Assembly (NCBI GenBank): GCA_029253045.1
Contig: JAQXAG010000048.1
Location: 1-61,518 of the forward strand
DNA: 61,518 nucleotides
Source of the DNA: Fidelibacterota bacterium
GTDB lineage: Bacteria; Fidelibacterota; Marinisomatia; Marinisomatales; Marinisomataceae
Direction of reading: 5' to 3'
Shown: one piece after another, positions 751-56,792 of the stretch
Numbering within the stretch: the stretch's first letter is position 1
Layout of the letters: the number at the start of each line of letters is the position of its first letter
Position numbers and translations under genes: made by a program
The notes under the pieces: generated by a model
Database searches by the model: none
What the model was told of the DNA's origin: nothing
Seen by the model: only the letters and a program-made list of their open reading frames with translations

Positions 751-760
751 GGTGTAATAA
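751..760 (+). promoter_or_regulatory. GGTGTAATAA upstream element (candidate phage promoter -10 region)
   Basis: Member of the recurrent (T/G)GTGTA(T)AAT family seen in most plus-strand intergenic gaps. The -10-like TAATAA ends 5 nt before ATG 766. No Shine-Dalgarno is visible. Confidence 0.4.
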
Positions 761-765
761 AAAGT

Positions 766-3315
766 ATGCCAGTGCCAAATTCAAGAATAAAAATAAAGAC
801 TGTAGAAAATTGCGATTTTATATCCTTACCTCTTGCTAAACCTGAATATTTCGGTAGGGAAAAAACATTCAGACTTAGAATAAAATGGGGAGATGGCAGT
901 ACAAATACTTATTCAAACAATTATGACAATGCGACTTTAGATTGGAATAGGGATTACGACACAGCTGGAAAAACTAAAAATTCAGTCCCTGAATCAGATA
1001 CTTTAGTTGTCCCCTTTCATTCCTATAAGGCTCCAGGGCAATACACCATCGAAATTTTTGGGGGATTTGATTATAGCCATGGTGAAAGCGATAACGAAAA
1101 CATAGGAACATTAAAGTTTGCATTTGCAGCCGCTGAAGACAGAATGGAAATATCAACAGGAGAGGGCGAGAATAAAGTTGTAACCAGGCAATGTGTAGGA
1201 ACGCCAGATAAAATTGAAGAGATTTTTGGATTAGGAAGTGCAAATAGGCCAAGGGGAGATTTATTTATTCACGGGCAAGGTGATTTTGAAGATTTTACGA
1301 ATTTAAAAAAAATACGTTGCTCGTTAAAACTTTTAAAATCAATCAAGTCTTCTTCAGAAGATAAAACTATATCATATAGCGAAGTGGACTCAGCTAAGGT
1401 ATGTTTTATAAATACTTTTAAAAATACAGAATCTTTAGAGCAAACCAAACAAATACAAAGATTACTTTCAGGCTCTCCCCAAGTTATAAATATGGAGGGG
1501 TGTTTTGATAATTCTGCATACAATGGGTCTTTATTGTGGAACACATCTGAGGTGAAAAATTTTAATAGAACATTTAGGAAGTCTAAAAATCTTGCCCCAA
1601 TTAAATTTTCTACATCATCCGCTGTAAGTATAGATTATATGTTTGAAGATTCTTATTGCGGACGAGTTTTTAAGATATTTAAAAAGTTATATAAGGGAAC
1701 TGCTAGCGGGGGGACTTCTTTCTGGAAGTTAGTTTTAACTAATAATTCAGGAAATACACTTTGGAGTAATGACGGAAGCATAGACATTGGATCTGCAGTC
1801 GGAGAGCCTTCAGCTTCAGTAAGTCTTGTTACAGAAACAGACGGAACAACTAAAAATAATTTTACTATAGGAGCAGGGGGAATGGACCCAATCAGTCCAG
1901 ATGCATTTATAGACCCATCAAAATCTAATGATTTTTATACAGATGCAAAGTTGCACTTCTGGACTAGCGATACGGATGAAGGAAATTACACTAAACAAAG
2001 TGTAGTTGTTTTAGATTTCAACTCCCCAGGGGTTATAAGGAAAAATGTAGATTCTTTAATTGGAGAATGGACTAATGTAGTATCAGCAGTAGGAACTTTT
2101 AAAGACCATAAAAAGTTAGATCCAGATTTATTGAAAAAGGCATTTGCAGCAGACAAGGAATATCCAATTGAAACTCTTGAAGCTTGTTTTGAAGGAACAA
2201 ATTTTTGGAAAAGCAGAAGGAATTATGCATTAAGGTGGGCGAGAGCTAAACCAAAATCATTAAGCAGATATATAAGGAATTCAAGAAATGCTTTTGATAT
2301 TAGTCGTATAGACACATCAAGACTTGAAAATGTGTCTCATGTTTGTGAAGATACTGATTATAACTTAGGAATAAATTTTAATTTCGAAAATGTAACGGAT
2401 GCATCTTACGCATTCGCTGGTTGTACTGGAAATCCTAAATTAACCGAAGCATTCTGGAGAAGAGGGCCCCTTAGAAGATACAATTTCAAGCCAATTAATG
2501 CTGAAGCAATGTTTGAAGGAAGTACTGGGTGGAGCGGCCAAAATTGGGACTGGCGACATATGAAGCCAACTTCATTAGAAAGAACTTTTAAAGATTGCGA
2601 TTTTAATGGAAGATTCAGCGGGATAAACACTTCAAATTGTACAAGTTTAAATTCTACATTTAAAAATAGCTCCTTTACATCAACAGATACAAATATCACG
2701 AAGTGGAATGTGAAAAATGTAGAAGATGCTAGCTATTGCTTTGAATTAAATCAAGGAGAATGGGACTTATCCTTATGGTTTAAACCAGAAAAAAGAAAAA
2801 ATTTTAAAATTAAAAATGTTACTGGATTTTTTGAAAGTTCAAAAAATAAAACAGTATGTAATGGTTGGGCTGCAACATTTGCAAAAACAGTTGTTTCAGC
2901 AAGTGCAATGTTTAAAAACAATACAGCAATTAAATTCAACGATATATATAAAATCCTAACAAATACTAGGAAAAACTCAAAGATTGAAGATATAGATGAA
3001 ATGTTCAGAGGCATAAAATTGGAAACGGGGGAACCTACTGGAAGTCAAAAATTTGAGATGAAAAAATGGCATTTAGCCAAACCAGAATGCAATCAGCACA
3101 TAAATGTTTTTAGAGGTGTAGGAATAACAATTCCCACAGTAACGTATGGAAGATGCAGGTTTAAATCTCATGAATCTAGAGACAATATTGTCGAAGATCC
3201 AATATACGAAAAGAAAAATTTATATGCTCATTCTGAAGTTGTATATAGAACGTTATGTAGTAGGGAAATGGGCCAGCAAGGTGAATACGACACAGTATTT
3301 ATGAAAGTAAGTTAA
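766..3315 (+). CDS. DUF285/BspA-like leucine-rich-repeat protein with N-terminal PKD-like WGD module
   Basis: 849-aa ORF. IKWGDGSTNTY...FHSYKAPGQYTIEIFGG resembles the PKD beta-sandwich signature (WxxGDG...HxYxxxGxYxI). From about aa 240 to 750 there are repeated ~25-30 aa units such as LWNTSEVKNFNRTFRKSKNL, NFENVTDASYAFAGC, WNVKNVEDASYCFEL and IEDIDEMFRG, as in DUF285/BspA-type repeats. Confidence 0.65.
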   Translation: MPVPNSRIKIKTVENCDFISLPLAKPEYFGREKTFRLRIKWGDGSTNTYSNNYDNATLDWNRDYDTAGKTKNSVPESDTLVVPFHSYKAPGQYTIEIFGGFDYSHGESDNENIGTLKFAFAAAEDRMEISTGEGENKVVTRQCVGTPDKIEEIFGLGSANRPRGDLFIHGQGDFEDFTNLKKIRCSLKLLKSIKSSSEDKTISYSEVDSAKVCFINTFKNTESLEQTKQIQRLLSGSPQVINMEGCFDNSAYNGSLLWNTSEVKNFNRTFRKSKNLAPIKFSTSSAVSIDYMFEDSYCGRVFKIFKKLYKGTASGGTSFWKLVLTNNSGNTLWSNDGSIDIGSAVGEPSASVSLVTETDGTTKNNFTIGAGGMDPISPDAFIDPSKSNDFYTDAKLHFWTSDTDEGNYTKQSVVVLDFNSPGVIRKNVDSLIGEWTNVVSAVGTFKDHKKLDPDLLKKAFAADKEYPIETLEACFEGTNFWKSRRNYALRWARAKPKSLSRYIRNSRNAFDISRIDTSRLENVSHVCEDTDYNLGINFNFENVTDASYAFAGCTGNPKLTEAFWRRGPLRRYNFKPINAEAMFEGSTGWSGQNWDWRHMKPTSLERTFKDCDFNGRFSGINTSNCTSLNSTFKNSSFTSTDTNITKWNVKNVEDASYCFELNQGEWDLSLWFKPEKRKNFKIKNVTGFFESSKNKTVCNGWAATFAKTVVSASAMFKNNTAIKFNDIYKILTNTRKNSKIEDIDEMFRGIKLETGEPTGSQKFEMKKWHLAKPECNQHINVFRGVGITIPTVTYGRCRFKSHESRDNIVEDPIYEKKNLYAHSEVVYRTLCSREMGQQGEYDTVFMKVS

Positions 3316-3328
3316 TAAAAAACATAAA

Positions 3329-6300: not shown

Positions 6301-9300
6301 TTTCGTTACTCATATAAAAAAGAATAGCGAGTATTCGGAGCAAGAACAAGGTTGGGTTAAAGGGGATTGGGTGTCAGAAGGTTTTTCTGATTTTACAAAC
6401 GGTAATATAGGTCCATTTGATAATTGGAAATTTGGAGAAAATTACTCTGAAGATTTTGACTTTTTTGAAAGGGTGCAATACAAAGAGGGCGAAGATGGTT
6501 TTGGGGTAAAGCAGGTAATGCCTTATGAATCCCTTTACCATACTTTTTACCCCATAATTAGAAATGGTAACATTGCTATAAAAGGGACGAATACAATATG
6601 GCCATATTACTCAACACTCACAGATAAAAAATGGGAAGGGTTAGCTGAGCCAAAAGTATTAAATACCGACTCGCCTTATTCAGAAGTAATAGGTAATATC
6701 AGATTTAATCATGATTTAAAAATAGGAGTCTTAGAAACAAACCCAGCATCTATAAACCAAGAACCTTTCTATAATTATATTTGTAATCAAGTTAATAATT
6801 CTTCAAAACAGGTAAGTGTAAAACACTTAAAGTTAGAAAATTATAAAAGTTTTAATAGAAGTGATGAAATAAATTCTGGAGTCCCGTCAAAAAGTTATGA
6901 TTGGATGTCAAGAACTAATGTCGTTTTTATAGACGATGGTAGTATTGACTTTGCTAGCGGAACTCTTCCAAAATATTCAATAATAGCAAAATTATTAGCA
7001 AAAAATTATGAATTAAGTTCTTCGGAGGGAATAGATTCTATAGAAAATATTTTTGAGTCAGCGCGTATTAACTTTGCATCATTATCTGCTTTTATGAACC
7101 GTTTTACCTTAAAAGGTTCATGCTCTTACAAGCGGGCTTTTAAAAATGCTACATTTACTACTTCTATTGATTTTAGTAAGTTTAGTTTTTCTGGCAATGA
7201 CTTAACAGAGATGTTTAAATCAGCCACTTTTAAAGCTGGCAATGTGAATTTTTCAAAAATAGAAACACCAAGCTCTATTAAAGGCTGGTTTGAAGATGCT
7301 GTGATTAGTAATGGGACTATAAAAGGTCTAGCAGGCTTAAGGACCTCAGAGTCGACTGATATAAGAAATGCATTTTTAAATTTAAAAATACAATCTGATA
7401 TTACTGATCTGCCTAGATTAAAACTTTCTGAAGGGCAAACTTTTGATTTAATAACTAGTAAATGCGAGTCATTAAGAGACGAATTAGGTAATGTTAATCC
7501 ATCCGCATTTAGAGTGGCGACCGATTCGGCAGGATCTATTACATTGCCAGAAAATTTAAATTTTGTAAATGAAATAGTAGATTATGTAAGAATGACACCA
7601 GGCACTGTCAGTAATACTACTGAAGCATCGATATTAGAGAATGAATATTCAGTTGCAATTAATAAAGGTTATCCAGATGCCTCCCGAATTGGATGGGAAG
7701 ATAATCAAATAAAACCTTCTTTTGTCAAAGCAGGAAAATATGCAATATTAGTTGACTCAGCTAGGGGAACTCCATATTCTGCAAACTCCTCAGTGTATGA
7801 AAGCGATGAAAATAATTGGGCGTCAGTATATAATTCAAATTTAGATTTAGGTTTGTATCAAAGCGAATCAGGATATTGGACTAAAAGCGATAGGCGTTTA
7901 ATTGGGGGAAAACAATTTTTCGGAAATAATGCGGACGATTCTGAAGAGGTAACTGATACAAAATACATTAAGAAGTTCAAAGCTATGGCCCTTTCGAGTA
8001 ATGAATATTACTGGATGGGAGGTAATCCTGTTGTAGGCACTTATAATAAAAATGTTTTAAGTAATTTGTTTTCTTGCAGGACTTTATTTGAGAGTATTGG
8101 CAGGCATTCATATTGGGCAATAATAACCGTGGACAAAGATGAATACCAAAAACAAGACCTTCATTTAAGATTCAAGAATACTACATTCACAAGTAAGGAT
8201 TGGGCTGAAGTGTCGGTAGAACCTTTCAGCTATGCACATAACATGCTTCATGCAGCAGAATGGAATGGGGGGTCGATAAGCTCTCCAAGGAGCTTACTAA
8301 GCAACCAAAAAGGGAAATTTTGGACTGATGCAGAGGAGTTATTAGGACAAGGAGGTTTAGCTACTCTTGATTCAGACTCAGATGGCATATTGGATATAGA
8401 TGAAAAAGGAGATGATATCACAGATCCTGACACTAAAGATTCAAAGATAACAATAACTTATGCAGATTCTGCAGAGTATAATGCAATCGCATCGGTGGAT
8501 CATGACGATCTAGGTTATCTACCACAAGGACATGAAATAGCATCCAATAAAGTAGGCATTTCATTGCAAATTGGAACAGGTGGAATAACCATAGATTGGG
8601 GAGATGACAATGACCCCGTAGCTTATACTACCTCAAACTCAGGAGTTATAGTGAAAGATTACGAATCCTCAGGCGGAGAGAAAACTATTATAATAGACGG
8701 CGATGTTACTACTTTTGGCTCAGATAACAATCATGGTGTAGCAGGTCATTATCTATACGGTTACCACACAACATCATCAGAAACAGATAAAAATGTAAGA
8801 ATCTTTCTTGGAAGCCAATTCAGAATGAAATCTTTTAAGTATGAAGGTGGCGGAGGCCTATTGAAATTTGGAAGACCTTTTGGTATTGGAAATGGGGTAG
8901 TCAATAGTCAGCAGACGCATAAGGGGAAAACCATGTTTGATCCGACCAATAATTGGGCGGCTGAAAATACAGGATTGCCAAAATCTAATTGCCAGGTAAG
9001 TGTAGATTTGTCTGGATTCAAACCATACAGTATTAATAATATATCAGGTGTCTTTAGTCAGCTTTATACTCATGATTTGGATTTATCAAGTTTGGATTTT
9101 TCAAGAATTGTATCCATGGATGAACTTTTCGCTTGTGCTATTATCACTGGAAACCTTAAAATGCCAAAAGTTGACGACTCGAATCCTGCAATGCCTGATT
9201 CTAGATATTTTAATGAACGACAAAATACTTTTGACGCTTCACGAGGAAGCCCAGCAACAAGAAAACAAGCATTAAAAGATGCTCATAGAAGAGGAGGTTA

Positions 9301-11734
9301 TAAAAGATTAAATTGGAGCGGACCTCCTTTAAAAGCTTTGGAAGATGATGAAGGGTCTGGAGAGGGTTTCATATTAGAAAATATATCTAATTGTTATAGG
9401 CAGTATAGTAGGTTATTTGTGGGCGCAGTAATTAATGAAATAACATTTGGAAATTTTAAACCAATCTTTACTAAAGCTGAAGATTATGGATTTATTCTGG
9501 GCAGAGGTAGCAATTATATAAACAAAATAGATGGTGCTATAGCAGAGCAATTTCCTAAATCAAGCATGGGTAGAGGAGGTAAGGGGCTACTACTAGCCCC
9601 TCAAACAAAAGAAATAAATATGACCGCAAGCTTTGTTTCTAAAGGGAAGCAGTATAATGAAGAAAATGCTTGGACTGGGCCTTATGATAGAGAAATAACT
9701 TATGAATTATCTCTGGGAAAAGATGATAACACTGGAAATCAGCACATTGATGTTGTGGCTGAACAGGGGATAAGCGAGCCTATGACAACAGAAGGTGAAA
9801 TATTTGATACAAGTGTAATACTTAGGCTTAAAAAGAATTCTGGTTTTGAACCAGATTCAGTTAATAATTTAAGAGAGGCTAGAGCAAGGTTTAAAGTTGT
9901 GGATGGAGATGATCCTATTAAAGTTGGCGACTATTCCTTTAATTCTACTTTTGGTTACCAACAGATAGAATATGAAATGCCAAAAACCACAACAGTACAA
10001 GGGTTGGTTAATTTTATTAATTCTGAGGGTAAGCTAGCTGCTACCGTTCTAAGTGGAAATACAAGTCAAGTTGTAAGTGCATCTGCTGAATCTTCTCAAA
10101 TGTCTTTTTATGGACATAAACTTCTGGAATTAGATTTCACTGGAGTTACTGGAGGAATTACAGTTAGTGAAATTTATAGCGCAGGTTATCTTACATTAAA
10201 CCTTTCAATAGGCAATGGAAATACAAGACAAGATATGATTGATGCAATTAATCAAGACAGCTCAATTAATTCTAAATACACGGCTTCGGCAAAAAGCTAT
10301 CATAATAATGATGATCTAAATAATGTGATTAATGTTGGATCACCTACTATGAATCGGAATAGCTTTTCCCAAAATAGCAAAACATTACTGACTAAGGGGG
10401 GGATTGATCATGCTTCTTTAGGATGGTCAAATTTTGGAGAGTGGAGGCATCGAAATACATACATTGAAAATCCTTACAATGCAAGTTCCATAAATGTATA
10501 TCCTGATAATACTTATGTGTTTGATTGGAGCGATACCAACATACCAATAAAGTTCTCCTTAACTGATGGGGGGACAGAATGGAATGATCCAGACGGTGTT
10601 ATAACAGTAAACACCACACAAAAGAAAACTACATTGAATATAAATTCTAAATTCCCATCTCACGTTAATGGAACTTCGAATTTCCCTCAAACTGAAGCGG
10701 TTTTATATGGATACGCAGAAGGAAAGTCACTCTTTTCAATGAGAATAAACTATGTAAATAATAGAGGTTTCGTTCTTAAAGGTAAGAATTCTTGGGAAAA
10801 TTTTGGATATTCCTCAAAGCCATCGTTGTACCCTTTTAATGGGTACAGTGACATTAGCGAAGATAACTGGACAGAAGTCTCAACTTTACCGTTGATGGCT
10901 GGCTTAAAGTACATTATTGATTACTCAGAATTACATGAAGCAAGTATATACGACAAGCTTGATTTACTTGGTGATAATATCTCCGCTGGTACGCATATTC
11001 AAGTTTTTAATTATTTTACTTCTCATACCGACAACAGAGAGTTAATAATAGATTTAACTGATATGACAATAGATAATTATACTTCGCCATTTGATTGGGG
11101 AAACTATTCACAACCAGTTTTTGTGAATGGTATAGAATGGAATCAGGCTGGATTGACTATAGGATCAAAAAAATACAACCAAGAGAAAAACACAGCATCA
11201 TCAAACGTTTGTCATGTTAAATTTAATAGGGGTCCAGTAGCTGATGATAATATCTTGCCTAATAACAAACTTGTATATGCACAAAAAGACACCTGGTTCT
11301 ATGGAATTTTTGAAAATCATCAGCGATACAGCACTATTAAAAATAGAGGGGATATAGAACAATGGATGCAGCCAGGAAGCTATAAAGATCTTAATCTTTT
11401 AACTACTGAATTTGAGTATAAAAAATATGAAACTACAGTTTCCAGCCTTTTCGCTGGAAAAGATGAGGTTTACAAATATAATGATGATGGAACTATTACG
11501 ACTCAATCTGCGTCGAAAGTTTCAGATACTTGGGGAAGACAATTCGGTGATGACTCTTATGAATGGAAAAGGAACACTGATTTGATTACGGATATTAATC
11601 CTGCAGAAGCCAAGTATAGAAACAGTCAATGCGGATGCATAGATAGTATGTTAAACTTAAAAACTTTCAAATACACTCAATTAACTAATTTTGATGATTG
11701 GGCTGAAAAGTATCCAGAAAAAGCTCCATCATAA
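3329..11734 (+). CDS. giant (2,801 aa) multidomain protein: trypsin-like protease + PKD-like WGD modules + DUF285/BspA-like repeats
   Basis: Uninterrupted ORF starting 13 nt after the previous stop. Domains seen: a protease triad (nt ~3716-4620); two WGD modules (INWGDNTT, W at nt 5810; IDWGDDND, W at nt 8597), each followed by HxY/xxYxxxGxxxIxIxGDV; DUF285-like repeats (e.g. nt 7080-7310 and 9000-9140); and DSDSDGILDIDEKGDDITDPD (8368-8432), a thrombospondin-type-3-like Ca-binding aspartate motif. Confidence 0.7.
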   Translation: MNNTEHLLEVAKKKLKDFKISSLSFVKVADSEFLISASVDQLIEDLPNSIEIDGKDYNIDQNISKIQLLDDTELEFDGVTKDEGQRLQKWRAKVQGENNRGIIFENDCNAGDDGTEYPDTTVNKTRTRPLKCGLSISADKASQGTLGCFAIDNQDGKLVGLTNAHVLAERFLLTSEGDESGYKASVENTKVYQGDMSNLSGLTDDDAIGIVKRYFPVGLPYTTRSGGHSITKDQYQIDAALIAIKKGMINENSWKLAGIDNTSFNEGGAPTFASYNEHLNWVYDSFWGGYNSDVGGELDEFKTPQESDMLTSGAGTGPKDGTVSGDDNYRWRIVGPYKFQEQKFKNSKNPDATIIKFAANNVAIARQQNKDRYKSDQLNTIARGDWYCADNLIPGDSGSVLYAKIRGKWKMVGLIYATKFEHPTPETITYKEGLIIPFYLVAELLDISPWDGVISDDIFSQEKSGEIRTDLIYAKGKSNIYRHEVDHRLGKRAYFQAGSVERERNRQYTAVQESFGSGDGEIRPIQRNISEFITYDGIDIDLPTEGSFDKSNKEYQSNPVWFKVKNLNVPNSTIPANILDPGNGVITLDVAVIKEDSFEGLGENYFKKENRGKIIYASAPILEFYGSTINASGTNIDSLASKVSDLLGGADSNYQPGKQFTNLSKVRFDDGRKGSRISVPENGLNLNKVTGYIEHFPWELGADGKSKGGARATPEKLEDWIEEGSIKCLVLTYIDKDSEYIIDKVDLGAIETAELGTFPEQKNVAPTGDKIMRFDIDTSKYLSDLTVFTNGTNQNYDSYHWKNGNDRAAKTVMIPILEVGEGGATINWGDNTTTQVPANWKMKNQNQLATCWKNLKAGATTNTTHHQVHQDLGYDKIIHYYQTTGVKQITIEGDVLRFGLVGSFQDEAVSAGGTNYPASEKGWNANHARNIIGGLESSDFYEYSLMFSCRVTFINKFPNWQNCDFIYPFVLSNITGWNVNSEFAGFRSVGAFVTHIKKNSEYSEQEQGWVKGDWVSEGFSDFTNGNIGPFDNWKFGENYSEDFDFFERVQYKEGEDGFGVKQVMPYESLYHTFYPIIRNGNIAIKGTNTIWPYYSTLTDKKWEGLAEPKVLNTDSPYSEVIGNIRFNHDLKIGVLETNPASINQEPFYNYICNQVNNSSKQVSVKHLKLENYKSFNRSDEINSGVPSKSYDWMSRTNVVFIDDGSIDFASGTLPKYSIIAKLLAKNYELSSSEGIDSIENIFESARINFASLSAFMNRFTLKGSCSYKRAFKNATFTTSIDFSKFSFSGNDLTEMFKSATFKAGNVNFSKIETPSSIKGWFEDAVISNGTIKGLAGLRTSESTDIRNAFLNLKIQSDITDLPRLKLSEGQTFDLITSKCESLRDELGNVNPSAFRVATDSAGSITLPENLNFVNEIVDYVRMTPGTVSNTTEASILENEYSVAINKGYPDASRIGWEDNQIKPSFVKAGKYAILVDSARGTPYSANSSVYESDENNWASVYNSNLDLGLYQSESGYWTKSDRRLIGGKQFFGNNADDSEEVTDTKYIKKFKAMALSSNEYYWMGGNPVVGTYNKNVLSNLFSCRTLFESIGRHSYWAIITVDKDEYQKQDLHLRFKNTTFTSKDWAEVSVEPFSYAHNMLHAAEWNGGSISSPRSLLSNQKGKFWTDAEELLGQGGLATLDSDSDGILDIDEKGDDITDPDTKDSKITITYADSAEYNAIASVDHDDLGYLPQGHEIASNKVGISLQIGTGGITIDWGDDNDPVAYTTSNSGVIVKDYESSGGEKTIIIDGDVTTFGSDNNHGVAGHYLYGYHTTSSETDKNVRIFLGSQFRMKSFKYEGGGGLLKFGRPFGIGNGVVNSQQTHKGKTMFDPTNNWAAENTGLPKSNCQVSVDLSGFKPYSINNISGVFSQLYTHDLDLSSLDFSRIVSMDELFACAIITGNLKMPKVDDSNPAMPDSRYFNERQNTFDASRGSPATRKQALKDAHRRGGYKRLNWSGPPLKALEDDEGSGEGFILENISNCYRQYSRLFVGAVINEITFGNFKPIFTKAEDYGFILGRGSNYINKIDGAIAEQFPKSSMGRGGKGLLLAPQTKEINMTASFVSKGKQYNEENAWTGPYDREITYELSLGKDDNTGNQHIDVVAEQGISEPMTTEGEIFDTSVILRLKKNSGFEPDSVNNLREARARFKVVDGDDPIKVGDYSFNSTFGYQQIEYEMPKTTTVQGLVNFINSEGKLAATVLSGNTSQVVSASAESSQMSFYGHKLLELDFTGVTGGITVSEIYSAGYLTLNLSIGNGNTRQDMIDAINQDSSINSKYTASAKSYHNNDDLNNVINVGSPTMNRNSFSQNSKTLLTKGGIDHASLGWSNFGEWRHRNTYIENPYNASSINVYPDNTYVFDWSDTNIPIKFSLTDGGTEWNDPDGVITVNTTQKKTTLNINSKFPSHVNGTSNFPQTEAVLYGYAEGKSLFSMRINYVNNRGFVLKGKNSWENFGYSSKPSLYPFNGYSDISEDNWTEVSTLPLMAGLKYIIDYSELHEASIYDKLDLLGDNISAGTHIQVFNYFTSHTDNRELIIDLTDMTIDNYTSPFDWGNYSQPVFVNGIEWNQAGLTIGSKKYNQEKNTASSNVCHVKFNRGPVADDNILPNNKLVYAQKDTWFYGIFENHQRYSTIKNRGDIEQWMQPGSYKDLNLLTTEFEYKKYETTVSSLFAGKDEVYKYNDDGTITTQSASKVSDTWGRQFGDDSYEWKRNTDLITDINPAEAKYRNSQCGCIDSMLNLKTFKYTQLTNFDDWAEKYPEKAPS
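3716..4620 (+). other. trypsin-like (chymotrypsin-fold) serine peptidase domain inside the 2,801-aa ORF
   Basis: GTLGCFAIDNQDGKLVGLTNAHVLA (His165, nt 3821), QIDAALIAI (Asp238, nt 4040) and IPGDSGSVLYA...WKMVGLIYA (Ser397, nt 4517). The H-D-S order and the TNxHV / GDSGS contexts are typical of S1-family peptidases. The Asp-Ser spacing is longer than usual, implying an insertion. Confidence 0.65.
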
Positions 11735-11781
11735 AAAGTTGATTTTTACACCTCTAAATAGATTATAGTTATCGAAAGATA

Positions 11782-12636
11782 ATGAATAATTTTGAAAAAA
11801 AAGTATTAAACTATCCATTTAAGTTAAAAAATAAAAAAGAAATACTAATTGATTTTTTCTTTCCTGAAAAAGATAATAATCCTAATAAACCTTTAGTTCT
11901 TTACTGTCACGGAGGGGGCTGGAGCCAAGGGGATAAAGAAAAAGCCCAAAAAGGTATTTTTAAAAAAGTTCACGAAGGATTACTTGAGAATGGATTTTGT
12001 ATTGCTTCGGTAGGGTATGATAAGGGAGAAGGAATACCCATTAGGGAATGTGTGACTGATTGTAAAGATGCATTAAGATTTATATTTTCAAAATCAAAAG
12101 AGCTAGGGGTTGACACTAAAAATATTTTTGTATTTGGAGATTCATCAGGAGGTCAAATAGCTCAAGTAATTTCTTTTACAGGAATTGAAGATTTTATCGG
12201 AGATAGTAAACTTAAAAATAATGCTTGTAGTGTGTCCGCAGTAGTGTCTTGGTATGCTCCAGTAGATTTTACGGATAAAAAATTAATGTTTAAAAATGAG
12301 CTCGCACGAAATAAAGATAGGTTTAGGGATAGAATAATGGCAGGAGCAAACCTTAAAGAAGAGCAGCAAAGAAGAGAAGAGATAAGCTCAATAACTTATT
12401 TGAGTGAATCAACTCCGCCTCTGCTTGTGATACACGGGGAGGAAGACGAAACTATTCCAGTAAAACACGCTAGGTTGATTAGAAAAAAAGCTGAAGAAAA
12501 GAATGCTAAAGTAAAAGTTTTAGTAATAAAAAATGCAGGTCATAACTGGAGAGCCACAGACGAAAAAATTTCAATTAAAAAAAATAGAATAATAAAGCAA
12601 ACTATAGATTTTTTTGTAAAAAATATCAAAAGTTAA
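11782..12636 (+). CDS. alpha/beta-hydrolase fold esterase (HGGG / GxSxG type, acetyl-esterase/lipase-like)
   Basis: 284 aa. LVLYCHGGGWSQGD (oxyanion HGGG, nt 11908-11922), FVFGDSSGGQIA (GxSxG nucleophile elbow, nt 12136-12153), LLVIHGEEDETIPV (acid) and KNAGHNW (His). No signal peptide is visible. Confidence 0.8.
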   Translation: MNNFEKKVLNYPFKLKNKKEILIDFFFPEKDNNPNKPLVLYCHGGGWSQGDKEKAQKGIFKKVHEGLLENGFCIASVGYDKGEGIPIRECVTDCKDALRFIFSKSKELGVDTKNIFVFGDSSGGQIAQVISFTGIEDFIGDSKLKNNACSVSAVVSWYAPVDFTDKKLMFKNELARNKDRFRDRIMAGANLKEEQQRREEISSITYLSESTPPLLVIHGEEDETIPVKHARLIRKKAEEKNAKVKVLVIKNAGHNWRATDEKISIKKNRIIKQTIDFFVKNIKS

Positions 12637-12676
12637 AAGTGACTTTCAAAGTTAACTTTAGACTTTCTCTCTTTGA

Positions 12677-12693
12677 GGTGTATAATATATTTA
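12677..12693 (+). promoter_or_regulatory. GGTGTATAATATATTTA candidate promoter abutting the portal start codon
   Basis: A perfect TATAAT (12681-12686) lies 7 nt before ATG 12694, with no room for a Shine-Dalgarno. A near-identical 27-nt copy, including the start codon and next two codons, lies on the minus strand at 56732-56758. Confidence 0.5.
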
Positions 12694-14724
12694 ATGAGCA
12701 AGAGAACATATACAAAAAAATCTCCATACTGGAACAAGTTTGCTTCTGGATCTTTAAATAAAGAGAATGAAGGCGAAGTAGGTATAAATGTGGAACCAGC
12801 TATGGCTGGAGACAATTACTATGTATCTAATGCATCTATGTATAATGGGGGATCGACAGGTACGACCTCAAGAAGAAAAAATTCAATATCCTCTTCAGCT
12901 AAGAATAATAGATTTTCTAACATACGGCAAGGAACATTGCCCTATACCCCAAGTTCTGATGGGGTCAATGTAAGAGACGCGATAGAGTTATGTCAAAAGG
13001 CTTATGCGAATGTTCCTATTTTTAGAAATGCGATTGACATAATGGCGGAGTTAGCAAACTCAACTATATCTGTTGAGGGTGGCAATGAGACCTCTAAAAA
13101 TTTTATAGAAAAATGGTTTTCAAAAATTAACCTATGGTCTTTAAAAGATCAGTTTTTTAGAGAGTATTATAGAAGTGGCAATGTATTTTTATATAGATTA
13201 GATGGCAAATTCTCAGCAGAAGATTTCGTAAAATTAAATAAAATATATGGATCTGAGTATCTAAAAGAAGGCTATATTCCAATAAAATATGTGTTACTAA
13301 ATCCTTATGATGTTATAGCTAATAGGTCTACTTCTTTCAAAGGTAGTGCTTATAAAAAAATACTTTCAGAATATGAGTTGGAAAAACTCCAAAACCCAAA
13401 AACAGAAGAAGATAAAGAGATTTATAATGCTCTTCCAGAAGAAACCAAAAAGAAAATAAAATCTGGAGGTTGGTCTGGAGATGGAGTATCAATGGATTTA
13501 GACGCTTCAAAATTAATACATGCTTTTTATAAAAAACAAGATTACGAACCTTTTGCAATACCGTTTGGATATCCAGTTTTAGATGATATTAACTGGAAAA
13601 TGGAATTAAAAAAGGTTGACCAAGCCATAAGTAGAACTATAGAAAATGTAATTTTACTTATAACAATGGGTACAGATCCAGACAAGGGAGGAATTAATCC
13701 AAATAATTTAAATGCCATGCAGAGCCTTTTTCAAAACGAAAGTGTTGGAAGAGTTTTAGTTTCTGATTATACAACTAAAGCTGAATTTATACTACCAGAC
13801 ATCAGTAAAGTGATTGGGCCTGAAAAATATAAAATAGTAAATGAAGATATTTCTCAAGGTTTACAGAATGTTATTGTCGGAGATGAAAAATATAAAAACA
13901 CCCAAGTTAAAGCTGAAATATTCCTAGAAAGGTTAAAGGAAGCTAGGCAATCATTCTTGCATAACTTTCTTCAACCTCAAATAAAAATGGTTTGTAAAGC
14001 TATGGGATTTAAAATATACCCAACAGCAAAGTTTGAAGAAATAGATATTAAAGACGAAGTTCAATTACAAAGAGTTGTAACTAGATTAATTGAAATGGGA
14101 ATATTGACTCCTGAGCAAGGTGTTAAAGCTATTAAAACTGGAATATATCCTGAAATTGAAGATATTGAAAAAGCACAGAAGAGATATATCGAAAAAAGAA
14201 AAGAGGGAATGTACAACCCACTAGTAGGTGGCTTGCCTATGGTTGATGTCGATGGAGATGGAACAGTAGACACCGTTCCATCAGGGAATCCTGAAGAAGG
14301 CGGAAGTTCCAATAAAACTCCCACTCCAAAAGGTTCTGGTAGGCCAGTAGGTAGACCTAGGGGAACAAAAGGCATACCTAGAACAGTGAATGCTACAGAA
14401 GATTTATATTCTAGAAAAGACATCCAAGCTATTGTTTATAAAACCCAAGAGTTGGAAAATCATATTAAAGAAGCTTTTGCAAACAAAACAAACAAAGAAG
14501 AGCTATCAGAAGAGCAAAATGAAATGTGCTCCCAACTAACAAAAAGCATAGTTATGGCAAAAGATAAAAACCAATGGAGAAGATGTGCTAATTCATGTAT
14601 AAAAGATTTTGAAAAAATAGAAAAACTTAAAGTTTTAAAAAATATTTTAGAAATATCTGAAGAGAAAAATTTAGAACTTTATGCTTCTTCATTACTTTAT
14701 CACAGTAAAAAACAAAAAACTTAA
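12694..14724 (+). CDS. portal protein (candidate)
   Basis: The track ORF starts at TTG 12673. I prefer ATG 12694 (MSKRTYTKK...) because of the promoter-like element. The protein is 676 aa and lies directly upstream of the protease/scaffold, D-position and capsid genes (lambda B-C/Nu3-D-E order). VPIFRNAIDIMAELANSTISVEG...FFREYYRSGNVFLY looks like portal-family proteins. There is a Gly/Pro/basic C-terminal extension. Confidence 0.7.
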   Translation: MSKRTYTKKSPYWNKFASGSLNKENEGEVGINVEPAMAGDNYYVSNASMYNGGSTGTTSRRKNSISSSAKNNRFSNIRQGTLPYTPSSDGVNVRDAIELCQKAYANVPIFRNAIDIMAELANSTISVEGGNETSKNFIEKWFSKINLWSLKDQFFREYYRSGNVFLYRLDGKFSAEDFVKLNKIYGSEYLKEGYIPIKYVLLNPYDVIANRSTSFKGSAYKKILSEYELEKLQNPKTEEDKEIYNALPEETKKKIKSGGWSGDGVSMDLDASKLIHAFYKKQDYEPFAIPFGYPVLDDINWKMELKKVDQAISRTIENVILLITMGTDPDKGGINPNNLNAMQSLFQNESVGRVLVSDYTTKAEFILPDISKVIGPEKYKIVNEDISQGLQNVIVGDEKYKNTQVKAEIFLERLKEARQSFLHNFLQPQIKMVCKAMGFKIYPTAKFEEIDIKDEVQLQRVVTRLIEMGILTPEQGVKAIKTGIYPEIEDIEKAQKRYIEKRKEGMYNPLVGGLPMVDVDGDGTVDTVPSGNPEEGGSSNKTPTPKGSGRPVGRPRGTKGIPRTVNATEDLYSRKDIQAIVYKTQELENHIKEAFANKTNKEELSEEQNEMCSQLTKSIVMAKDKNQWRRCANSCIKDFEKIEKLKVLKNILEISEEKNLELYASSLLYHSKKQKT

Positions 14725-14729
14725 ATTTT

Positions 14730-14739
14730 TGTGTAATCT
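14730..14739 (+). promoter_or_regulatory. TGTGTAATCT upstream element
   Basis: Same GTGTAAT core, 31 nt upstream of ATG 14770, in the 45-nt gap after the portal gene. Confidence 0.3.
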
Positions 14740-14769
14740 TCTTTTGAACAATAGCTAACACATATATAA

Positions 14770-16398: not shown

Positions 16399-16404
16399 AA
16401 AACC

Positions 16405-17091: not shown

Positions 17092-17126
17092 AACTATAAC
17101 ATTTAACAAAAAAAGGTTTAACTAAA

Positions 17127-18188: not shown

Positions 18189-18210
18189 GATATCTAAAAC
18201 CCTTTTGAAA

Positions 18211-18243
18211 ACGCGGTAGCTTTTGAGTTACCGCGTTTTTTTT
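18211..18243 (+). terminator. rho-independent terminator after capsid gene
   Basis: 8-bp stem ACGCGGTA (18211-18218) / TACCGCGT (18229-18236), a 10-nt loop, and a T8 run (18236-18243). Confidence 0.8.
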
Positions 18244-18315
18244 GTGGAATTTTCTAAATGACTTTTTATAATAATGTGTGTAGACTATATATGTATATGC
18301 TAACCCTCAAACACC

Positions 18316-18717: not shown

Positions 18718-18741
18718 TCTTTTTAATAAAAGGTTTTTGGT

Positions 18742-20991: not shown

Positions 20992-21005
20992 GTATTAATT
21001 AATTT

Positions 21006-21311
21006 TTACTTATAATAATTTTTAAACTTAAATTCTACAATAAATTTTTCCAAATCTTCGCTTTGACTTCTCAATGAATCATTTCCCAAATCAAGAACTC
21101 TTTTTCTAAGATATTGCATTTTTTCAAAATCAAAATAATTTGCTTGATTTATGAGCGAATTGTAAGTCTCTGGTAAAGCTTTTTTTAATTTTGCAAAATG
21201 TATATTATGCTCTTCGTTCAAATCTTCAAGCATGAATAAAAAACCCTTGAATAAGCTTTTTATATGCTTTTCATACCTGTCTTGTAATATTTCTTTATCT
21301 TCCTCGCCCAT
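21006..21311 (-). CDS. hypothetical protein (inverted cassette 1, gene 1)
   Basis: 101 aa and helical-looking. It is preceded by a 66-nt AT-rich divergent intergenic region (21312-21377). Confidence 0.55.
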   Translation of the reverse strand: MGEEDKEILQDRYEKHIKSLFKGFLFMLEDLNEEHNIHFAKLKKALPETYNSLINQANYFDFEKMQYLRKRVLDLGNDSLRSQSEDLEKFIVEFKFKNYYK

Positions 21312-21358
21312 AATAAGCTAGATATAATAATTTTCAAAAACAATTTTTCAACAAAAAG

Positions 21359-21368
21359 AGTGTAATTT
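21359..21368 (+). promoter_or_regulatory. AGTGTAATTT upstream element
   Basis: GTGTAAT core ending 9 nt before ATG 21378. It restarts plus-strand transcription after the inverted cassette. Confidence 0.4.
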
Positions 21369-21377
21369 ATATATAAG

Positions 21378-23351: not shown

Positions 23352-23446
23352 CAAATAAGAAAATATTTCACATTATATTATTTCTAATGTAATTTAGGAT
23401 AAACCCATTTTTCCAAAAAACATAAAAATCTAAATATTTAAATATC

Positions 23447-25209: not shown

Positions 25210-25241
25210 AAAAAAACCCGCCAAATGGCGGGTTTTTTTTG
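25210..25241 (+). terminator. rho-independent terminator (A-tract / GC hairpin / T-tract, potentially bidirectional)
   Basis: A7 (25210-25216), stem CCCGCC (25217-25222), loop AAAT, stem GGCGGG (25227-25232), and T8 (25233-25240). Confidence 0.85.
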
Positions 25242-25269: not shown

Positions 25270-25279
25270 GGTGTAATAT
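25270..25279 (+). promoter_or_regulatory. GGTGTAATAT upstream element before tape measure gene
   Basis: GTGTAAT core 21 nt upstream of ATG 25300, directly after the terminator. An AAGGA-like ribosome-binding site follows (taaggatatATG). Confidence 0.4.
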
Positions 25280-25299
25280 CTGTTAAGGAATAAGGATAT

Positions 25300-38495: not shown

Positions 38496-38535
38496 ATCTC
38501 AATCGAAAAAAATACAAAAAATAATATAATATATA

Positions 38536-39441: not shown

Positions 39442-39824
39442 TGAAAAGTGAAATTTTAAATAAAATTAAAAAGATTTCAGAATCCCAAAAAGAAGAAGAA
39501 ATTTGCGGGTTTATTGTAGAAGATAAAGGTAAAGAACATTTGGTTGAATGTGAAAATGTGTCTTTTCATAAAAAAGGTAATTTTGAGATATCACAAAAAA
39601 AATTTGTAGAAGTTTTTGAGCAAAATAAAATTTTAATTATTTACCATTCCCATCCAGAAAATACAGAACAGTTTTCAAAAGAAGATATAAATCTTAGTGA
39701 ATCTTTGATTCTGCCAATTATAGTTTATAGTAATCAAACTGAAAAATTTAACATACATATTCCCAAGGGGGTGAAAAGAAATAAATCATTAAACAGGGTG
39801 GAAAAAAGTGTAGTTACTTATTAG
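39441..39824 (+). CDS. JAB/MPN (JAMM) metallopeptidase-domain tail protein, lambda gpK N-terminal-like, without NlpC/P60 domain
   Basis: 127 aa. EEICGFIVE (upstream Glu) plus HSHPENTEQFSKED equals H-x-H-x7-S-x2-D (nt 39645-39686), a complete JAMM motif. It sits between the L-like and I-like genes. Confidence 0.8.
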   Translation: MKSEILNKIKKISESQKEEEICGFIVEDKGKEHLVECENVSFHKKGNFEISQKKFVEVFEQNKILIIYHSHPENTEQFSKEDINLSESLILPIIVYSNQTEKFNIHIPKGVKRNKSLNRVEKSVVTY

Positions 39825-39836
39825 GGAATAAGGTTT

Positions 39837-40547: not shown

Positions 40548-40550
40548 GCT

Positions 40551-49193: not shown

Positions 49194-49201
49194 TATAATA
49201 T

Positions 49202-49366
49202 ATGAACATTAGAGAATTAGATGAATTAAATATAAAAGCAATGCTTTGCGACATTTTGCTTGAAAAAGAAAATATAGAAAAAAATATAGATATATTAAAA
49301 GCAGAATTAGAAAGAAGAGAAAACGACAGAAAAGTTAAAGTTCAAAGCGGACCAGGAGGAAAGTAA
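49202..49366 (+). CDS. small coiled-coil protein (54 aa), not in ORF track
   Basis: ATG 49202, TAA 49364-49366. MNIRELDELNIKAMLCDILLEKENIEKNIDILKAELERRENDRKVKVQSGPGGK. It fills the gap between the J-like and fibre genes, and the next gene starts 6 nt later. Confidence 0.35.
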   Translation: MNIRELDELNIKAMLCDILLEKENIEKNIDILKAELERRENDRKVKVQSGPGGK

Positions 49367-49372
49367 TAAATT

Positions 49373-53554: not shown

Positions 53555-53555
53555 T

Positions 53556-54626
53556 TTATTTACATTTATCTTTTCCGCAAAAAGACTGAGATGTTGGTGT
53601 AGATCCAGGACTAGGAGGACTGTATTGGCTGTAAGAAGGGGTGTTTGTTCCGTTATTAGTTGTCTCGTTACAGCAATTTTCTCCACTACTGGTTGTAGCA
53701 TGCCCACTTCTTCCAGGGAAATATAATCTGCTTTTTTGTTTAGGCATATATGGATTAAGCATGGGCATAATTATTGAATTATAACCAGGATGTTGCATTC
53801 TTCTATTTTTTAAAGCATGGAATATGAAACCTTTATTTGGTTTTAATTTAACATCTCTATAAAAAAAGTTTGCTGGATTTTGATACTGTAAAGTTTCAAT
53901 TGATTTTAAATCAATTGATCTTCCGTGAGCATAAAAAACATTCTCTTCTTTTACAAAAGAAAAAACTCTAGGTATTAATCTTTTACTTTGACCTTGTACT
54001 TTATGATTTACTTGAGGTTGATTTAATAATTCATTAACACTTTTGCTTTGGATTTCAGTGTCATATTCGCTTAGATAATCTTCTATAGTTTGCCTATTTC
54101 CTTGCATAGAGTCTCCTAATCTAGTATGCATAGGCTGACCCTTATAGGCACTTTGAATCTGCATTTCTATAGGTGAATCATATATAATTTCTGATGCAAG
54201 TTTTCCATTTTTAGGGTAAAATATTCTGAATCTAGTATTGACTGGGTCACCTCTATAAGCTATAATATTGCATTTATTGAAAACTAGTTCACCATCATCT
54301 CCGTCACATTCTAAAAAAAGCTCGACGAACACAACCTCTCCTGCTTTTATATTTGATATTTTTAATAGCGGTGTCTGGCTTTTATGAGATCCGATCCAGT
54401 CAACCTCAACATTAGTTTGAAAATCAACAGAGTTCTTGTAGTTGCTATGTATCCCAATTACTTGCCAATCCCAATTAATTGGATTAAAATTAAGTGCATG
54501 ATATTTAGGTATAACATGTACAAAATCAGAAGACGTTCCGTCGTAGTCCTCTACAGTTCTATATAAAGAATTATTTAAGTTTAAAAAAGGTTTCCAAACT
54601 GCTTTTTGCTCTTCCGTTAATGCCAT
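53556..54626 (-). CDS. hypothetical protein (inverted cassette 2, gene 2)
   Basis: 356 aa. Its stop lies 1 nt from the convergent stop of the 1,393-aa gene. The Ser/Thr/Pro/Asn-rich C-terminal tail ends in a Cys-rich CCNE...FCGKDKCK. Confidence 0.6.
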   Translation of the reverse strand: MALTEEQKAVWKPFLNLNNSLYRTVEDYDGTSSDFVHVIPKYHALNFNPINWDWQVIGIHSNYKNSVDFQTNVEVDWIGSHKSQTPLLKISNIKAGEVVFVELFLECDGDDGELVFNKCNIIAYRGDPVNTRFRIFYPKNGKLASEIIYDSPIEMQIQSAYKGQPMHTRLGDSMQGNRQTIEDYLSEYDTEIQSKSVNELLNQPQVNHKVQGQSKRLIPRVFSFVKEENVFYAHGRSIDLKSIETLQYQNPANFFYRDVKLKPNKGFIFHALKNRRMQHPGYNSIIMPMLNPYMPKQKSRLYFPGRSGHATTSSGENCCNETTNNGTNTPSYSQYSPPSPGSTPTSQSFCGKDKCK

Positions 54627-54638
54627 AATAAATTATTG

Positions 54639-56741
54639 TTAATCATCTGAGCTATAACTAGATGAACTATTATTTTGAGATGATGAAGTTGAATTATCTC
54701 TTCCATAGTATGACATATCCAACATAGATTCAACTGCGCCAGGTCCTATTTGTGCTTCTGTATCTAAAAAGATTTGTTTCACATGGTCGAAATTAGGAAT
54801 ATAATTCCCGTTTATATTATACTTTTCATCGGTGTAATCTAAGTCAACTCTCCAACCTTTTAATTCTAGCCTTTCAACTAATGCTAGTATATTGTTGTTT
54901 AAATCATAAGTTGGAGCATTTTCATACTTTGGATTTTCCTCAAAAGTCAAATTATCTGACAGCATGTAAGCATCTGGTCTGCCAGTAACACTAACTAGTG
55001 CCCCCATTGGGCCAATATAATCATGAACACCTGTATAAATTACAGCATTCTCTGGGCCATTCCTTGTCTCTTGATCTTTAGCATTAAAATAACCATTTGT
55101 CCTATTGCAGTGTAAAGCTGATTTTAATGCATGGTAAATTCCAGTTTGATTTAATTTATTTGAACCTAAATTAAGCAGCTTCAATTTTTTATTTGATATG
55201 AAAAAAGGAGGGCATCCATTTGGAAAAAACTCATCTTTTGGGAGGTCAACTTCTAAACCATTATAATAAGGACATCTAGCATGAACAGGCGGTTGATTAA
55301 ATATATGTCTCCATTCGTGCTTGGTATCGTGATTTTCATTTTTTGGGCTCAAATTGTGATAATCATTCAACCAGTCGGTTCCGCACCCAGAAATAATAAA
55401 AGTTTTTACATTAGGAAATGAGTGAGGATGAAAATATATATATTCAAGGTTGGGACAGTCAGTAAACATTAAAGATGTAGCTCTTCGTGTACTACCCATG
55501 TGTTGAGCTGGTATTCTAAAAGATTTTAGTTGATGACTATCATCTATCCTTATGAAATCAAAAACGTCATATTTATGCCCCCAGAAACAAAATGGAGCTC
55601 CATATTGATGGTGGTATAAATTTTTATAATTTTTTCGATCAGCCCAAAGCTCAGTAGGTATAGTTCCGTTTTCATATAAACTAGCTTCTTGAATTCTTTC
55701 TCTATTAATAGAATCAGTGGCATTAGTTATTTTAATTTCTTTTGTACTATCTTGGTCGTCAAGAACACTATCAAAATGAACTTTCATACTTCGCGTCATT
55801 TCGTCTTTATAAATAGTATGTGGAATGACCATTGTATTTGCAGGCTCCCAAATCGCTCCAGTGCCACGGTATTCTCCTCCGTTCTCTGCATTTTTAGTGA
55901 AATACCTAACTATACTACTTCTTTTATTTTGATAAGTTACCGCCCCTATCGCAAGGTCATAAACCAAACAATCAAAATTCATGCTTGTCGTTATGTCCGC
56001 TCTAAGTTCTCTCGCAAAACCTTCTACTTCAATTTCTTGAATACCAGTTTTATGATAAGTTATATCAAGAGTCGCATATTCATTAGGGTCTCCTCGGTAG
56101 CCGCCCATAGATCCGCTTATAAAACTAGGATCGGTTTGAAGTTCAGGACGAATATAAATTTCATTTCGCACTCCTTTAGATTTAGATTGAAGAATGAAGG
56201 GACCATACCTAGGTTCAGTTAAATCACCCATTTTTGATACATAAAATCCGCTTGATCCACTAACCAAATCTTCATCTATTATTGTTTGTATTTCTTGGGC
56301 GGTAAAACTATATCTTATTGGTCTGGTTAATTTTTCGTTACCATCGATTTCTAGATAAGATATTTGATAAAAATTACTCCTGTATTGCTCTAGATATTCT
56401 TTTGAGCTTTTACATATTTGTCCATATAAATTACCTCTTAAAATCTCTCTGTATGTTAAAACTTCTGGCCTTACAGAGGCCTCAGTATCATTATTAGGAT
56501 TTTTAAATCCTTTTTTATTGTTATAATCTAAAAGAAGAGGATCTTTTTGATCGTTTAGTTTATTATAATTTAAATTAAAATATTTTGCGGTTTTATCTAA
56601 GTAATAATTAGGTCGATCAATCAAGTCTTTTAAGGTTAATTTATCCGAAGTGCTTCTCCAGGGTTTGATTTGATTATCAAAAACCCCTTGCCCTGGGCTA
56701 AAAGTACCCCCACCGAGTTGAAAATTCTTAGTCTTACTCAT
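54639..56741 (-). CDS. LRR-like hypothetical protein (inverted cassette 2, gene 1)
   Basis: 700 aa from ATG 56741 (the track uses TTG 56744). A portal-type promoter copy lies directly upstream. The C-terminal half has LRR-like segments (CPNLEYIYFHPHSFPNVKTFIISGCG; NKKLKLLNLGSNKLNQTG). It ends in STSSSQNNSSSSYSSDD. Confidence 0.6.
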   Translation of the reverse strand: MSKTKNFQLGGGTFSPGQGVFDNQIKPWRSTSDKLTLKDLIDRPNYYLDKTAKYFNLNYNKLNDQKDPLLLDYNNKKGFKNPNNDTEASVRPEVLTYREILRGNLYGQICKSSKEYLEQYRSNFYQISYLEIDGNEKLTRPIRYSFTAQEIQTIIDEDLVSGSSGFYVSKMGDLTEPRYGPFILQSKSKGVRNEIYIRPELQTDPSFISGSMGGYRGDPNEYATLDITYHKTGIQEIEVEGFARELRADITTSMNFDCLVYDLAIGAVTYQNKRSSIVRYFTKNAENGGEYRGTGAIWEPANTMVIPHTIYKDEMTRSMKVHFDSVLDDQDSTKEIKITNATDSINRERIQEASLYENGTIPTELWADRKNYKNLYHHQYGAPFCFWGHKYDVFDFIRIDDSHQLKSFRIPAQHMGSTRRATSLMFTDCPNLEYIYFHPHSFPNVKTFIISGCGTDWLNDYHNLSPKNENHDTKHEWRHIFNQPPVHARCPYYNGLEVDLPKDEFFPNGCPPFFISNKKLKLLNLGSNKLNQTGIYHALKSALHCNRTNGYFNAKDQETRNGPENAVIYTGVHDYIGPMGALVSVTGRPDAYMLSDNLTFEENPKYENAPTYDLNNNILALVERLELKGWRVDLDYTDEKYNINGNYIPNFDHVKQIFLDTEAQIGPGAVESMLDMSYYGRDNSTSSSQNNSSSSYSSDD

Positions 56742-56758
56742 CAAATATATTATACACC
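56742..56758 (-). promoter_or_regulatory. GGTGTATAATATATTTG candidate promoter (inverted copy of the portal promoter)
   Basis: The reverse complement of 56732-56758 is GGTGTATAATATATTTGATGAGTAAGA. The portal copy at 12677-12703 is GGTGTATAATATATTTAATGAGCAAGA, giving 25/27 identical. TATAAT (56754-56749) lies 7 nt before ATG 56741. Confidence 0.5.
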
Positions 56759-56782
56759 AAAACGGAGAAAAAACTATTTTAA

Positions 56783-56792
56783 TGTGTAAATT
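56783..56792 (+). promoter_or_regulatory. TGTGTAAATT upstream element (divergent partner)
   Basis: GTGTAAAT core ending 6 nt before ATG 56799. It lies back to back with the minus-strand promoter in a 57-nt intergenic region. Confidence 0.4.

Follow-up and report, generated by a model that had tools for sequence, protein, structure and literature searches.

The short word GTGTA recurs upstream of the genes in a 61.5-kb stretch of DNA (hereafter, the window), which is the whole of contig C97 in the 961-kb, 108-contig genome bin of a Fidelibacterota bacterium and is itself phage DNA. Dozens of distant phages have the word at matching positions, which argues for a phage-specific promoter, and on this evidence we take it almost certainly to be one. 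An earlier reading, based on the sequence only, had already proposed such a promoter, either independent of a -35 element or dependent on a phage factor; that proposal is now supported by enrichment, conservation, lack of a -35 and the sigma-like genes of related phages. In the more specific form that we prefer, and to which we assign a probability of about 0.5, GTGTA-AWNT would be the core of a -35-independent class of middle/late promoters, whose most likely reader is a sigma-like factor encoded by the phage.

The proposed mechanism is as follows. GTGTA, followed by A-W-N-T, would serve as the core recognition element of promoters that lack a -35 and drive the structural (middle/late) genes. 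Its TA would occupy positions -12/-11 of a -10-type hexamer, with GTG adjoining at -15 to -13, and host core RNA polymerase would start about 7 nt past the hexamer. At six of the ten window sites this start would be the A of the ATG or lie within ~3 nt of it, yielding leaderless mRNAs; the other four would have a short leader, which for the tape-measure gene and for the gene at ATG 39837 would carry a conserved GGAATAAGG ribosome-binding box. The putative reader is a phage protein of ~240 aa, in which a four-cysteine insert separates a sigma region 2 from a region-4-like helix-turn-helix; it is found in all sufficiently complete relatives.

Placement and conservation of the element

Placement was assessed in the 45 nt upstream of genes, on the sense strand, for 31 scorable genes of the window. 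In these regions GTGTA occurred 10 times, against 0.72 expected (binomial p = 3e-9), a count that none of 20000 shuffles reached, and it ranked second of 1024 pentamers, after AAAAA. The sequence-only reading had called the clustering before start codons non-random, and these figures bear it out. They also hold in a genome-wide count, which had been suggested as a check: in two related phages rated complete (non-independent samples, with genes called crudely as the longest open reading frame from the first ATG), upstream GTGTA numbered 22 against 2.56 expected (G5, 180 kb; p = 9e-15) and 18 against 2.72 (G6, 163 kb; p = 3e-10), and in both it was the sole top pentamer not purely A/T. The cellular contigs of the bin showed no such enrichment (10 against 18.5 expected; rank 794 of 1024); upstream of their genes, the enriched words came mostly from tRNAs or were A/T words, and no promoter motif stood out. 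Upstream GTGTA was likewise not enriched on C27, an early-region contig.

Could a short A/T-rich word have clustered by chance in A/T-rich intergenic DNA? The word is not over-represented across the window as a whole (GTGTAWWWW, 16 against 12.2 expected), as chance would have it, but the upstream p value, the shuffles, the recurrence of the enrichment in G5 and G6 and the invariance of the word at matching sites in dozens of diverged relatives all speak against this explanation. Its probability is negligible, and the comparative data already reject it.

The conservation was most extensively followed at the portal gene, for which 80 viral loci encoding portals of 50-84% protein identity were fetched. 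GTGTA-nn-AT was present in 78 of 78 relatives' loci (51 of 51 unique upstream sequences), while the surrounding bases vary, and the start codon lay 6 nt past the hexamer in 36 of the 51. For the gene after the portal (ATG 14770), GTGTA was found in 41 of 42 unique relatives, the ATG mostly standing 7 nt past the hexamer. For the tape-measure gene, with 56 loci at 50-89% protein identity, TTTT[GA]GTGTAWW stood upstream in all of the unique sequences that were printed, often only ~10-20 nt past a terminator hairpin. In G5, G6 and a further relative, G1, GTGTA also stands at the sites matching ATGs 766, 18316, 21378, 39837, 56741, 56799 and 57960 of the window.

A second genome of the bin's genus (~1.1 Mb) contains a 64-kb contig of a related phage (G063:C36, L253; portal 55% identical) with the same GTGTA promoters, although its G+C content, 42% in the part fetched, far exceeds that of the window's phage and bin (33-35%). 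In addition, the gene for the large subunit of ribonucleotide reductase has GTGTA at +23 to +33 in both G5 (108011, L097) and G6 (103434, L169), suggesting that the class is probably middle as well as late and not confined to structural genes.

The surroundings of the copies point in the same direction. Two strong intrinsic terminators (Table 1) are each followed by a GTGTA copy after 31-35 nt, and the 57-nt divergent gap at 56742-56798 consists of two opposed copies back to back and little else. The presence of copies in divergent gaps and past terminators suggests that the elements mark transcription starts.

The same observations bear on the idea that GTGTA acts at the RNA level, as a processing site or translation signal within long polycistronic transcripts. 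Such a role would suit the strict sense orientation of the word, its fixed short distance to many start codons and the location of two copies (39808 and 57945) inside the 3' end of the upstream gene. However, the 57- and 66-nt divergent gaps need promoters and contain little else, copies lie directly past strong terminators, and the word stands as far from the start codon as do the genuine -10 hexamers of the canonical class described below. Moreover, at ATGs 25300 and 39837 a separate conserved ribosome-binding box stands between the word and the ATG. The AAGGAATAAGG leader of the tape-measure gene begins close to the predicted 5' end of a transcript from the 25271 element, and its core, GGAATAAGG, is kept in nearly all printed tape-measure relatives, down to 50% identity, a few of them having single-base variants. 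A conserved box of this kind in the predicted leaders argues against the element itself being the translation signal, and we consider the RNA-level explanation very improbable. The AAGGAATAAGG leader may be a strong ribosome-binding site or a regulatory leader. Leaders of this type are unusual in a genome where many genes probably have none.

As for the phage itself, the stretch at 37.5-40.5 kb of the window contains recognisable tail genes of lambda type (M, L, K and I), flanked by the genes for a 3545-aa tape-measure protein and a 2880-aa tip protein, and the gene order from portal to fibre is the same in IMG/VR viral contigs. Since complete relatives measure 160-180 kb and a 57-kb relative (G001) is rated 51% complete by CheckV, the window represents about half a genome. 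Neither its tape-measure DNA nor its portal protein had a match among cultured phages, the portal having been searched against 50,697 phage records; a scan of public genomes for the portal protein, swamped by spurious pattern matches, returned one genome only. No description of a GTGTA promoter motif was found in the literature. Promoters of uncultured phages are almost never known, and the motif offers a transcription-unit map for a large lineage with no cultured member.

Probable promoter anatomy and the early-region promoters

The anatomy of the element was derived from 57 GTGTA sites in four phages, in which the TA is invariant by construction of the anchor. Past GTGTA, the preferred bases were A (34/57), W (52/57), any base and T (37/57), so that the conserved length is ~9 bp. 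The last hexamer position was T in 37 sites and A in 17, and AT was found in 50 of 51 portal promoters. As the sequence-only reading had noted for the window, no convincing -35 is shared: positions -45 to -8 carried no information content, and TTGAC occurred at 1 of the 57 sites.

Of 51 start-proximal sites in G5, G6 and the window, 23 have the A of their ATG between +13 and +17, counted from the first G, and the mode is +15. This mode corresponds to TAnnnT-N6-ATG and thereby places the TA of GTGTA in the -10 register, with GTG at -15 to -13. From the fixed N6 spacing to the ATG we infer leaderless mRNAs, many transcripts probably starting at the start codon itself. The fixed spacing also helps to fix start codons, as at the portal gene. 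Here the longest open reading frame starts at TTG 12673, but the promoter lies inside that extension and the relatives start at ATG (MSKR/MPKR), which identifies ATG 12694 as the real start.

A second class of promoters was recognised in the early region. Contig C27 (18.8 kb, same bin) matches the early region of G5 at 80-90% DNA identity, and hence derives from the same or a sister phage. This contig, like the early regions of G5 (L092-L093, 0-23 kb) and G6, has canonical promoters of the form A tract-TTGACA-N17-TAnnGT; about 18 were counted on C27 (e.g., C27:6292-6330, 6531-6569 and 10048-10086), with the ATG 7 nt past the hexamer. The hexamer-to-start distance peaks sharply at 7 nt (5/20 in C27, 9/56 in G5), a peak that the cellular contigs do not show, suggesting that the early genes, too, are built to be leaderless. 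The spacing of the GTGTA class to the ATG is the same as that of this TTGAC-N17-TAnnnT class. The motif separates early (TTGACA class) from middle/late (GTGTA class) genes by sequence alone.

The shared spacing is relevant to another explanation, namely that the host primary sigma reads the element as an unusual extended -10 while a small phage protein blocks -35-dependent initiation, with no phage sigma involved. The TA-anchored distance to the ATG is identical in the two classes, and the early promoters often also have a G directly before the TA, so one host sigma could read both. A precedent for such a protein is AsiA of T4, which blocks -35-dependent initiation. Thermus phage P23-45, too, invites comparison, and many of its transcripts are leaderless. 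This phage shows the pattern that the alternative supposes, its gp39/gp76 switch leading from an early -10/-35 class to a later (middle/late) extended -10 class without a -35 (PMC3950348), and gp39 is the protein that blocks -35-dependent initiation (PMC3950348). In P23-45, and probably also in the window's phage family, later genes use -35-less promoters with an upstream extension of the -10 hexamer. However, P23-45 relies on a canonical TG at -15/-14 and on host sigma A, with no phage sigma, whereas here GTG abuts the TA and the relatives have sigma-like genes.

The canonical extended -10 is TGnTATAAT, with TG at -15/-14, one base from the hexamer. The GTGTA element resembles the sigma-70 extended -10 in the TA that opens the hexamer, the T-rich last position, the independence from a -35 and a predicted start ~7 nt downstream. 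In all 57 sites, however, GTG adjoins TA directly, so that TG would be one base closer, at -14/-13 if TA is -12/-11, and what stays constant is GTGTA, not A-11 and T-7; by the position of its TG, the element fails the canonical definition. A primary sigma would not normally demand an invariant GTGTA while tolerating a variable rest of the hexamer, the bin's own cellular genes make no use of GTGTA in their upstream regions, and up to three sigma-like genes in the complete relatives would be left without a role. For these reasons we regard reading by the host sigma as rather unlikely, though by no means negligible.

Candidate reader and comparable systems

Our preferred interpretation requires a phage-encoded factor, and the relatives provide a candidate. 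A protein of ~240 aa with a match to sigma region 2 (23.0-28.3 bits, cut-off 24) was found in five of six relatives searched (matches among G002-G007), the exception being the 51%-complete G001. The protein shows weak matches to regions 2 and 4 in the correct order, the latter to a region-4-like helix-turn-helix, and between the two domains it has four invariant cysteines (Cys94, Cys97, Cys110 and Cys122). It is encoded, for example, at L164:13845-14564 in G6 and L104:1405-2100 in G5, with further loci at L173-L252, and relatives of it occur on at least 585 IMG/VR viral contigs. In an AlphaFold model (pLDDT 74.5), the best structural matches were mostly sigma factors in holoenzyme complexes. 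A profile search of solved structures returned only ECF sigmas, at E = 0.4-1.4, and none related by sequence. Two further proteins of G6 belong here, one of 381 aa that has a region 4 domain and one that is clearly an ECF-type sigma (40.9 bits for region 2); neither gene is present in the window or the bin.

The idea that the sigma-like gene is itself transcribed from a GTGTA promoter was rejected, since GTGTA was upstream of it in only 1 of 77 loci. Its lack of the element fits a factor made earlier, which would then turn the class on. A phage RNA polymerase was also rejected as the reader: none was found in three complete relatives, whether T7-like (PF00940) or multisubunit (PF00623), although the T7-like negative is weak because PF00940 matched no control genome. 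The large unassigned proteins of the relatives contained no polymerase domains, and the conserved length of ~9 bp does not suit a T7-like promoter (~20 bp).

Several observations weigh against our preferred interpretation. Some members of the sigma-like family score 22.6-22.8 bits, under the Pfam cut-off of 24, and the fold matches are not significant (E >= 0.037). The gene was not found in the window or in the whole bin, presumably because the contig covers no more than about half of a genome of 160-180 kb. The last-position T, at 37 of 57 sites, is weaker than in typical -10 elements, and a G directly before the TA is common in the canonical early promoters as well. Finally, protein and motif are both invariant across the family, and the link between them is one that we infer.

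Another possibility is that GTGTA is not a sigma contact but is bound by a late activator of the phage, or by some other DNA-binding regulator, beside a weak A/T-rich -10. The combination of a short word that does not vary with an A/T-rich hexamer that does would fit a regulator site, the relatives encode further helix-turn-helix proteins (such as the 381-aa protein of G6), and the ACTTT repeats of the portal promoter look like extra binding sites. Nonetheless, the word keeps a fixed distance from the start codon and adjoins the -10 or overlaps it, so that an activator bound there would clash with sigma, and the word has neither dyad symmetry nor a second half-site, which makes this explanation improbable.

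Reading by a phage sigma-like factor has parallels in well-studied phages. T4 late promoters (TATAAATA) are -10-only and are read by gp55, a reduced sigma-family protein, together with gp33 and the sliding clamp. The GTGTA class would be similar in being a -10-only late promoter with a (candidate) phage reader of the sigma family; it differs in its word, in a candidate factor that has region 2 and a region-4-like domain, and in showing no evidence of clamp coupling. The closest described case is the single-element promoter of phiEco32 and Salmonella phage 7-11, which has the same logic with a different word and protein. The middle/late promoters of these phages (tAATGTAtA) are read by the phage ECF-type sigma gp36 (PMC4331800), and phiEco32, which has this small sigma of its own, leaves its early genes on canonical host-type promoters (PMC4331800). 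Similarly, we found here a single short conserved near -10 element, without a -35 and with few copies, upstream of middle/late genes: the 10 window copies all lie in the structural region, and the early contig C27, which lacks the element, uses TTGAC promoters. The two words share a TGTA core. Unlike in phiEco32, the word is GTGTA-AWNT, the candidate sigma has a four-cysteine insert and no detectable sequence relationship, and a leaderless layout with a fixed N6 before the ATG has not been described for phiEco32.

Other promoter types were considered and set aside. A Bacteroidota-type promoter (-33 TTTG/-7 TAnnTTTG) would have TA four bases ahead of its -7 TTTG; a CTTTG precedes the portal GTGTA, but the TA positions are not conserved (A19 C12 G4 T16; A18 C5 G10 T18). 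For an ECF-type promoter (-35 AAC, 16-17 nt, -10 CGT), AACTTT/GACTTT boxes were present at the portal only, and ACTTT occurred in 11 of the 57 GTGTA sites.

From the analysis emerge a new candidate protein of the sigma type and the DNA word that it probably recognises, a pair that can be tested in vitro without culturing the host. A more sweeping statement would be that, throughout a widespread uncultured aquatic phage lineage, an undescribed four-cysteine sigma reads a GTGTA -10-only promoter, and that the first genes of both early and late units are leaderless with an exact N6 spacing, while the ~1-Mb binned bacterium shows neither trait; this we advance tentatively, at somewhat less than even odds.

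Individual copies, portal region and host

The copies and associated features are collected in Table 1. All seven main copies listed in the sequence-only reading were found again. Of its two weaker ones, that at 18278 proved real, with GTGTA at the corresponding sites of G5 and G6, each preceded by a terminator-like T run, whereas that at 23388 did not hold up as a GTGTA copy, although the variant is conserved as such, being present as [AC]TGTAATTT in both phages. Two further copies, at 57945 (ATG 57960) and 39808 (ATG 39837), had escaped that list. The intragenic copies placed at about 9812 and 37351 were located at 9813 and 37352, and the non-coding DNA of the window, estimated at ~0.9 kb (~1.5%), was recounted as 904 nt (1.47%). 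An antisense RNA suggested to arise from the copy at 11752-11745 found no support: the copy is not conserved, is absent from the matching gap in G6 and is compatible with chance. The wrong-orientation word, TACAC, occurs three times in the upstream regions of the window; two of these belong to the divergent pair, and once the pair is set aside the count is near expectation.

Table 1. Copies of the GTGTA element and associated features in the window (hairpin energies from RNAfold)
Feature	Position	Strand	Gene and start codon	A of ATG from first G	Matching GTGTA sites	Remarks
GTGTAATAA	752-760	+	849-aa DUF285 protein, ATG 766	+14	G6 22363	
GTGTATAAT	12678-12686	+	portal, ATG 12694	+16		
GTGTAATCT	14731-14739	+	542-aa gene, ATG 14770			leader would be ~24 nt
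GTGTAGACT	18278-18286	+	ATG 18316		G6 36287, G5 48186	weak copy, 35 nt past terminator
GTGTAATTT	21360-21368	+	ATG 21378	+18	G6 39339, G5 51273 (G5 ATG +15)	66-nt divergent gap
TGTAATTT	23388-23395	+	ATG 23447			variant without leading G, ~50 nt before ATG; no GTGTA match; doubtful member
GTGTAATAT	25271-25279	+	tape-measure, ATG 25300			
GTGTAGTTA	39808-39816	+	ATG 39837		G6 57885, G5 70087	within 3' end of preceding gene
GTGTATAAT	56749-56757	-	700-aa gene, ATG 56741	+16	G6 75018, G5 83771	
GTGTAAATT	56784-56792	+	383-aa gene, ATG 56799	+15	G6 75045, G5 83787	
GTGTAATTA	57945-57953	+	1095-aa fibre gene, ATG 57960	+15	G6 76206 (+15), G5 84964	in last codons of 383-aa gene
GGTGTAAA	11745-11752	-				opposite orientation; probably chance copy outside the system
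Intrinsic terminator	18207-18243	+				15-bp hairpin then T8, past capsid-region operon; -23.3 kcal/mol
Intrinsic terminator	25210-25240	+				13-bp hairpin (6 GC pairs) and T run, past 580-aa gene; -19.3 kcal/mol
AAGGAATAAGG	25285-25295	+	tape-measure, ATG 25300			Shine-Dalgarno-like leader, 4 nt before ATG
GGGAATAAGG	39824-39833	+	ATG 39837			near-copy of tape-measure leader box, before ATG
TAGACTTT	12659-12666	+	portal			-35-like box at portal only, 16 nt before TATAAT

The portal promoter has features of its own. All 51 unique relatives share its -35-like box in the form T[AG]GACTTT, and in a sigma-70 scan TAGACT-16-TATAAT scored 10 of 12; a generic sigma-70 scan of 11-27 kb yielded 51 sites where 54 were expected and was uninformative. 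The -35-like box belongs to a series of three to four ACTTT boxes (AACTTT/GACTTT), ~7-12 nt apart, that lie at 12640-12666, upstream of this promoter only, and are conserved in the 51 unique relatives (L002-L081); the series may serve to bind an additional regulator or act as a UP-like element. Together with the first codons, the promoter (12678-12703) is nearly duplicated in inverted orientation 44 kb away (56732-56757, minus strand; GTGTATAATATATTTAATGAGCAA vs GTGTATAATATATTTGATGAGTAA), and the portal gene and the minus-strand 700-aa gene both open with Met-Ser-Lys.

Turning to the host, the bin gave matches to T9SS-type sorting domains, and no WhiB or SusD was found in it. Its order comprises 233 species genomes, and its genus 37 species of ~1 Mb. 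Phages of the window's family were detected in two genomes of this genus and in none of 196 others in the order, a distribution that modestly supports the phage-host link, the binning of phage contigs being unreliable. Leaderless translation, if confirmed, would inform on translation in a streamlined marine host.

Some transcription-unit starts in the window lack GTGTA but have a TATAAT/TATTAT-type hexamer 3-13 nt before the ATG (38496-38535, 49194-49201 and, on the minus strand, 21312-21351), and may represent a third, weaker promoter type. At the minus-strand cassette at 21311 the arrangement is TTGAAA-16-TATTAT; the matching site of G5 has GTGTA instead.

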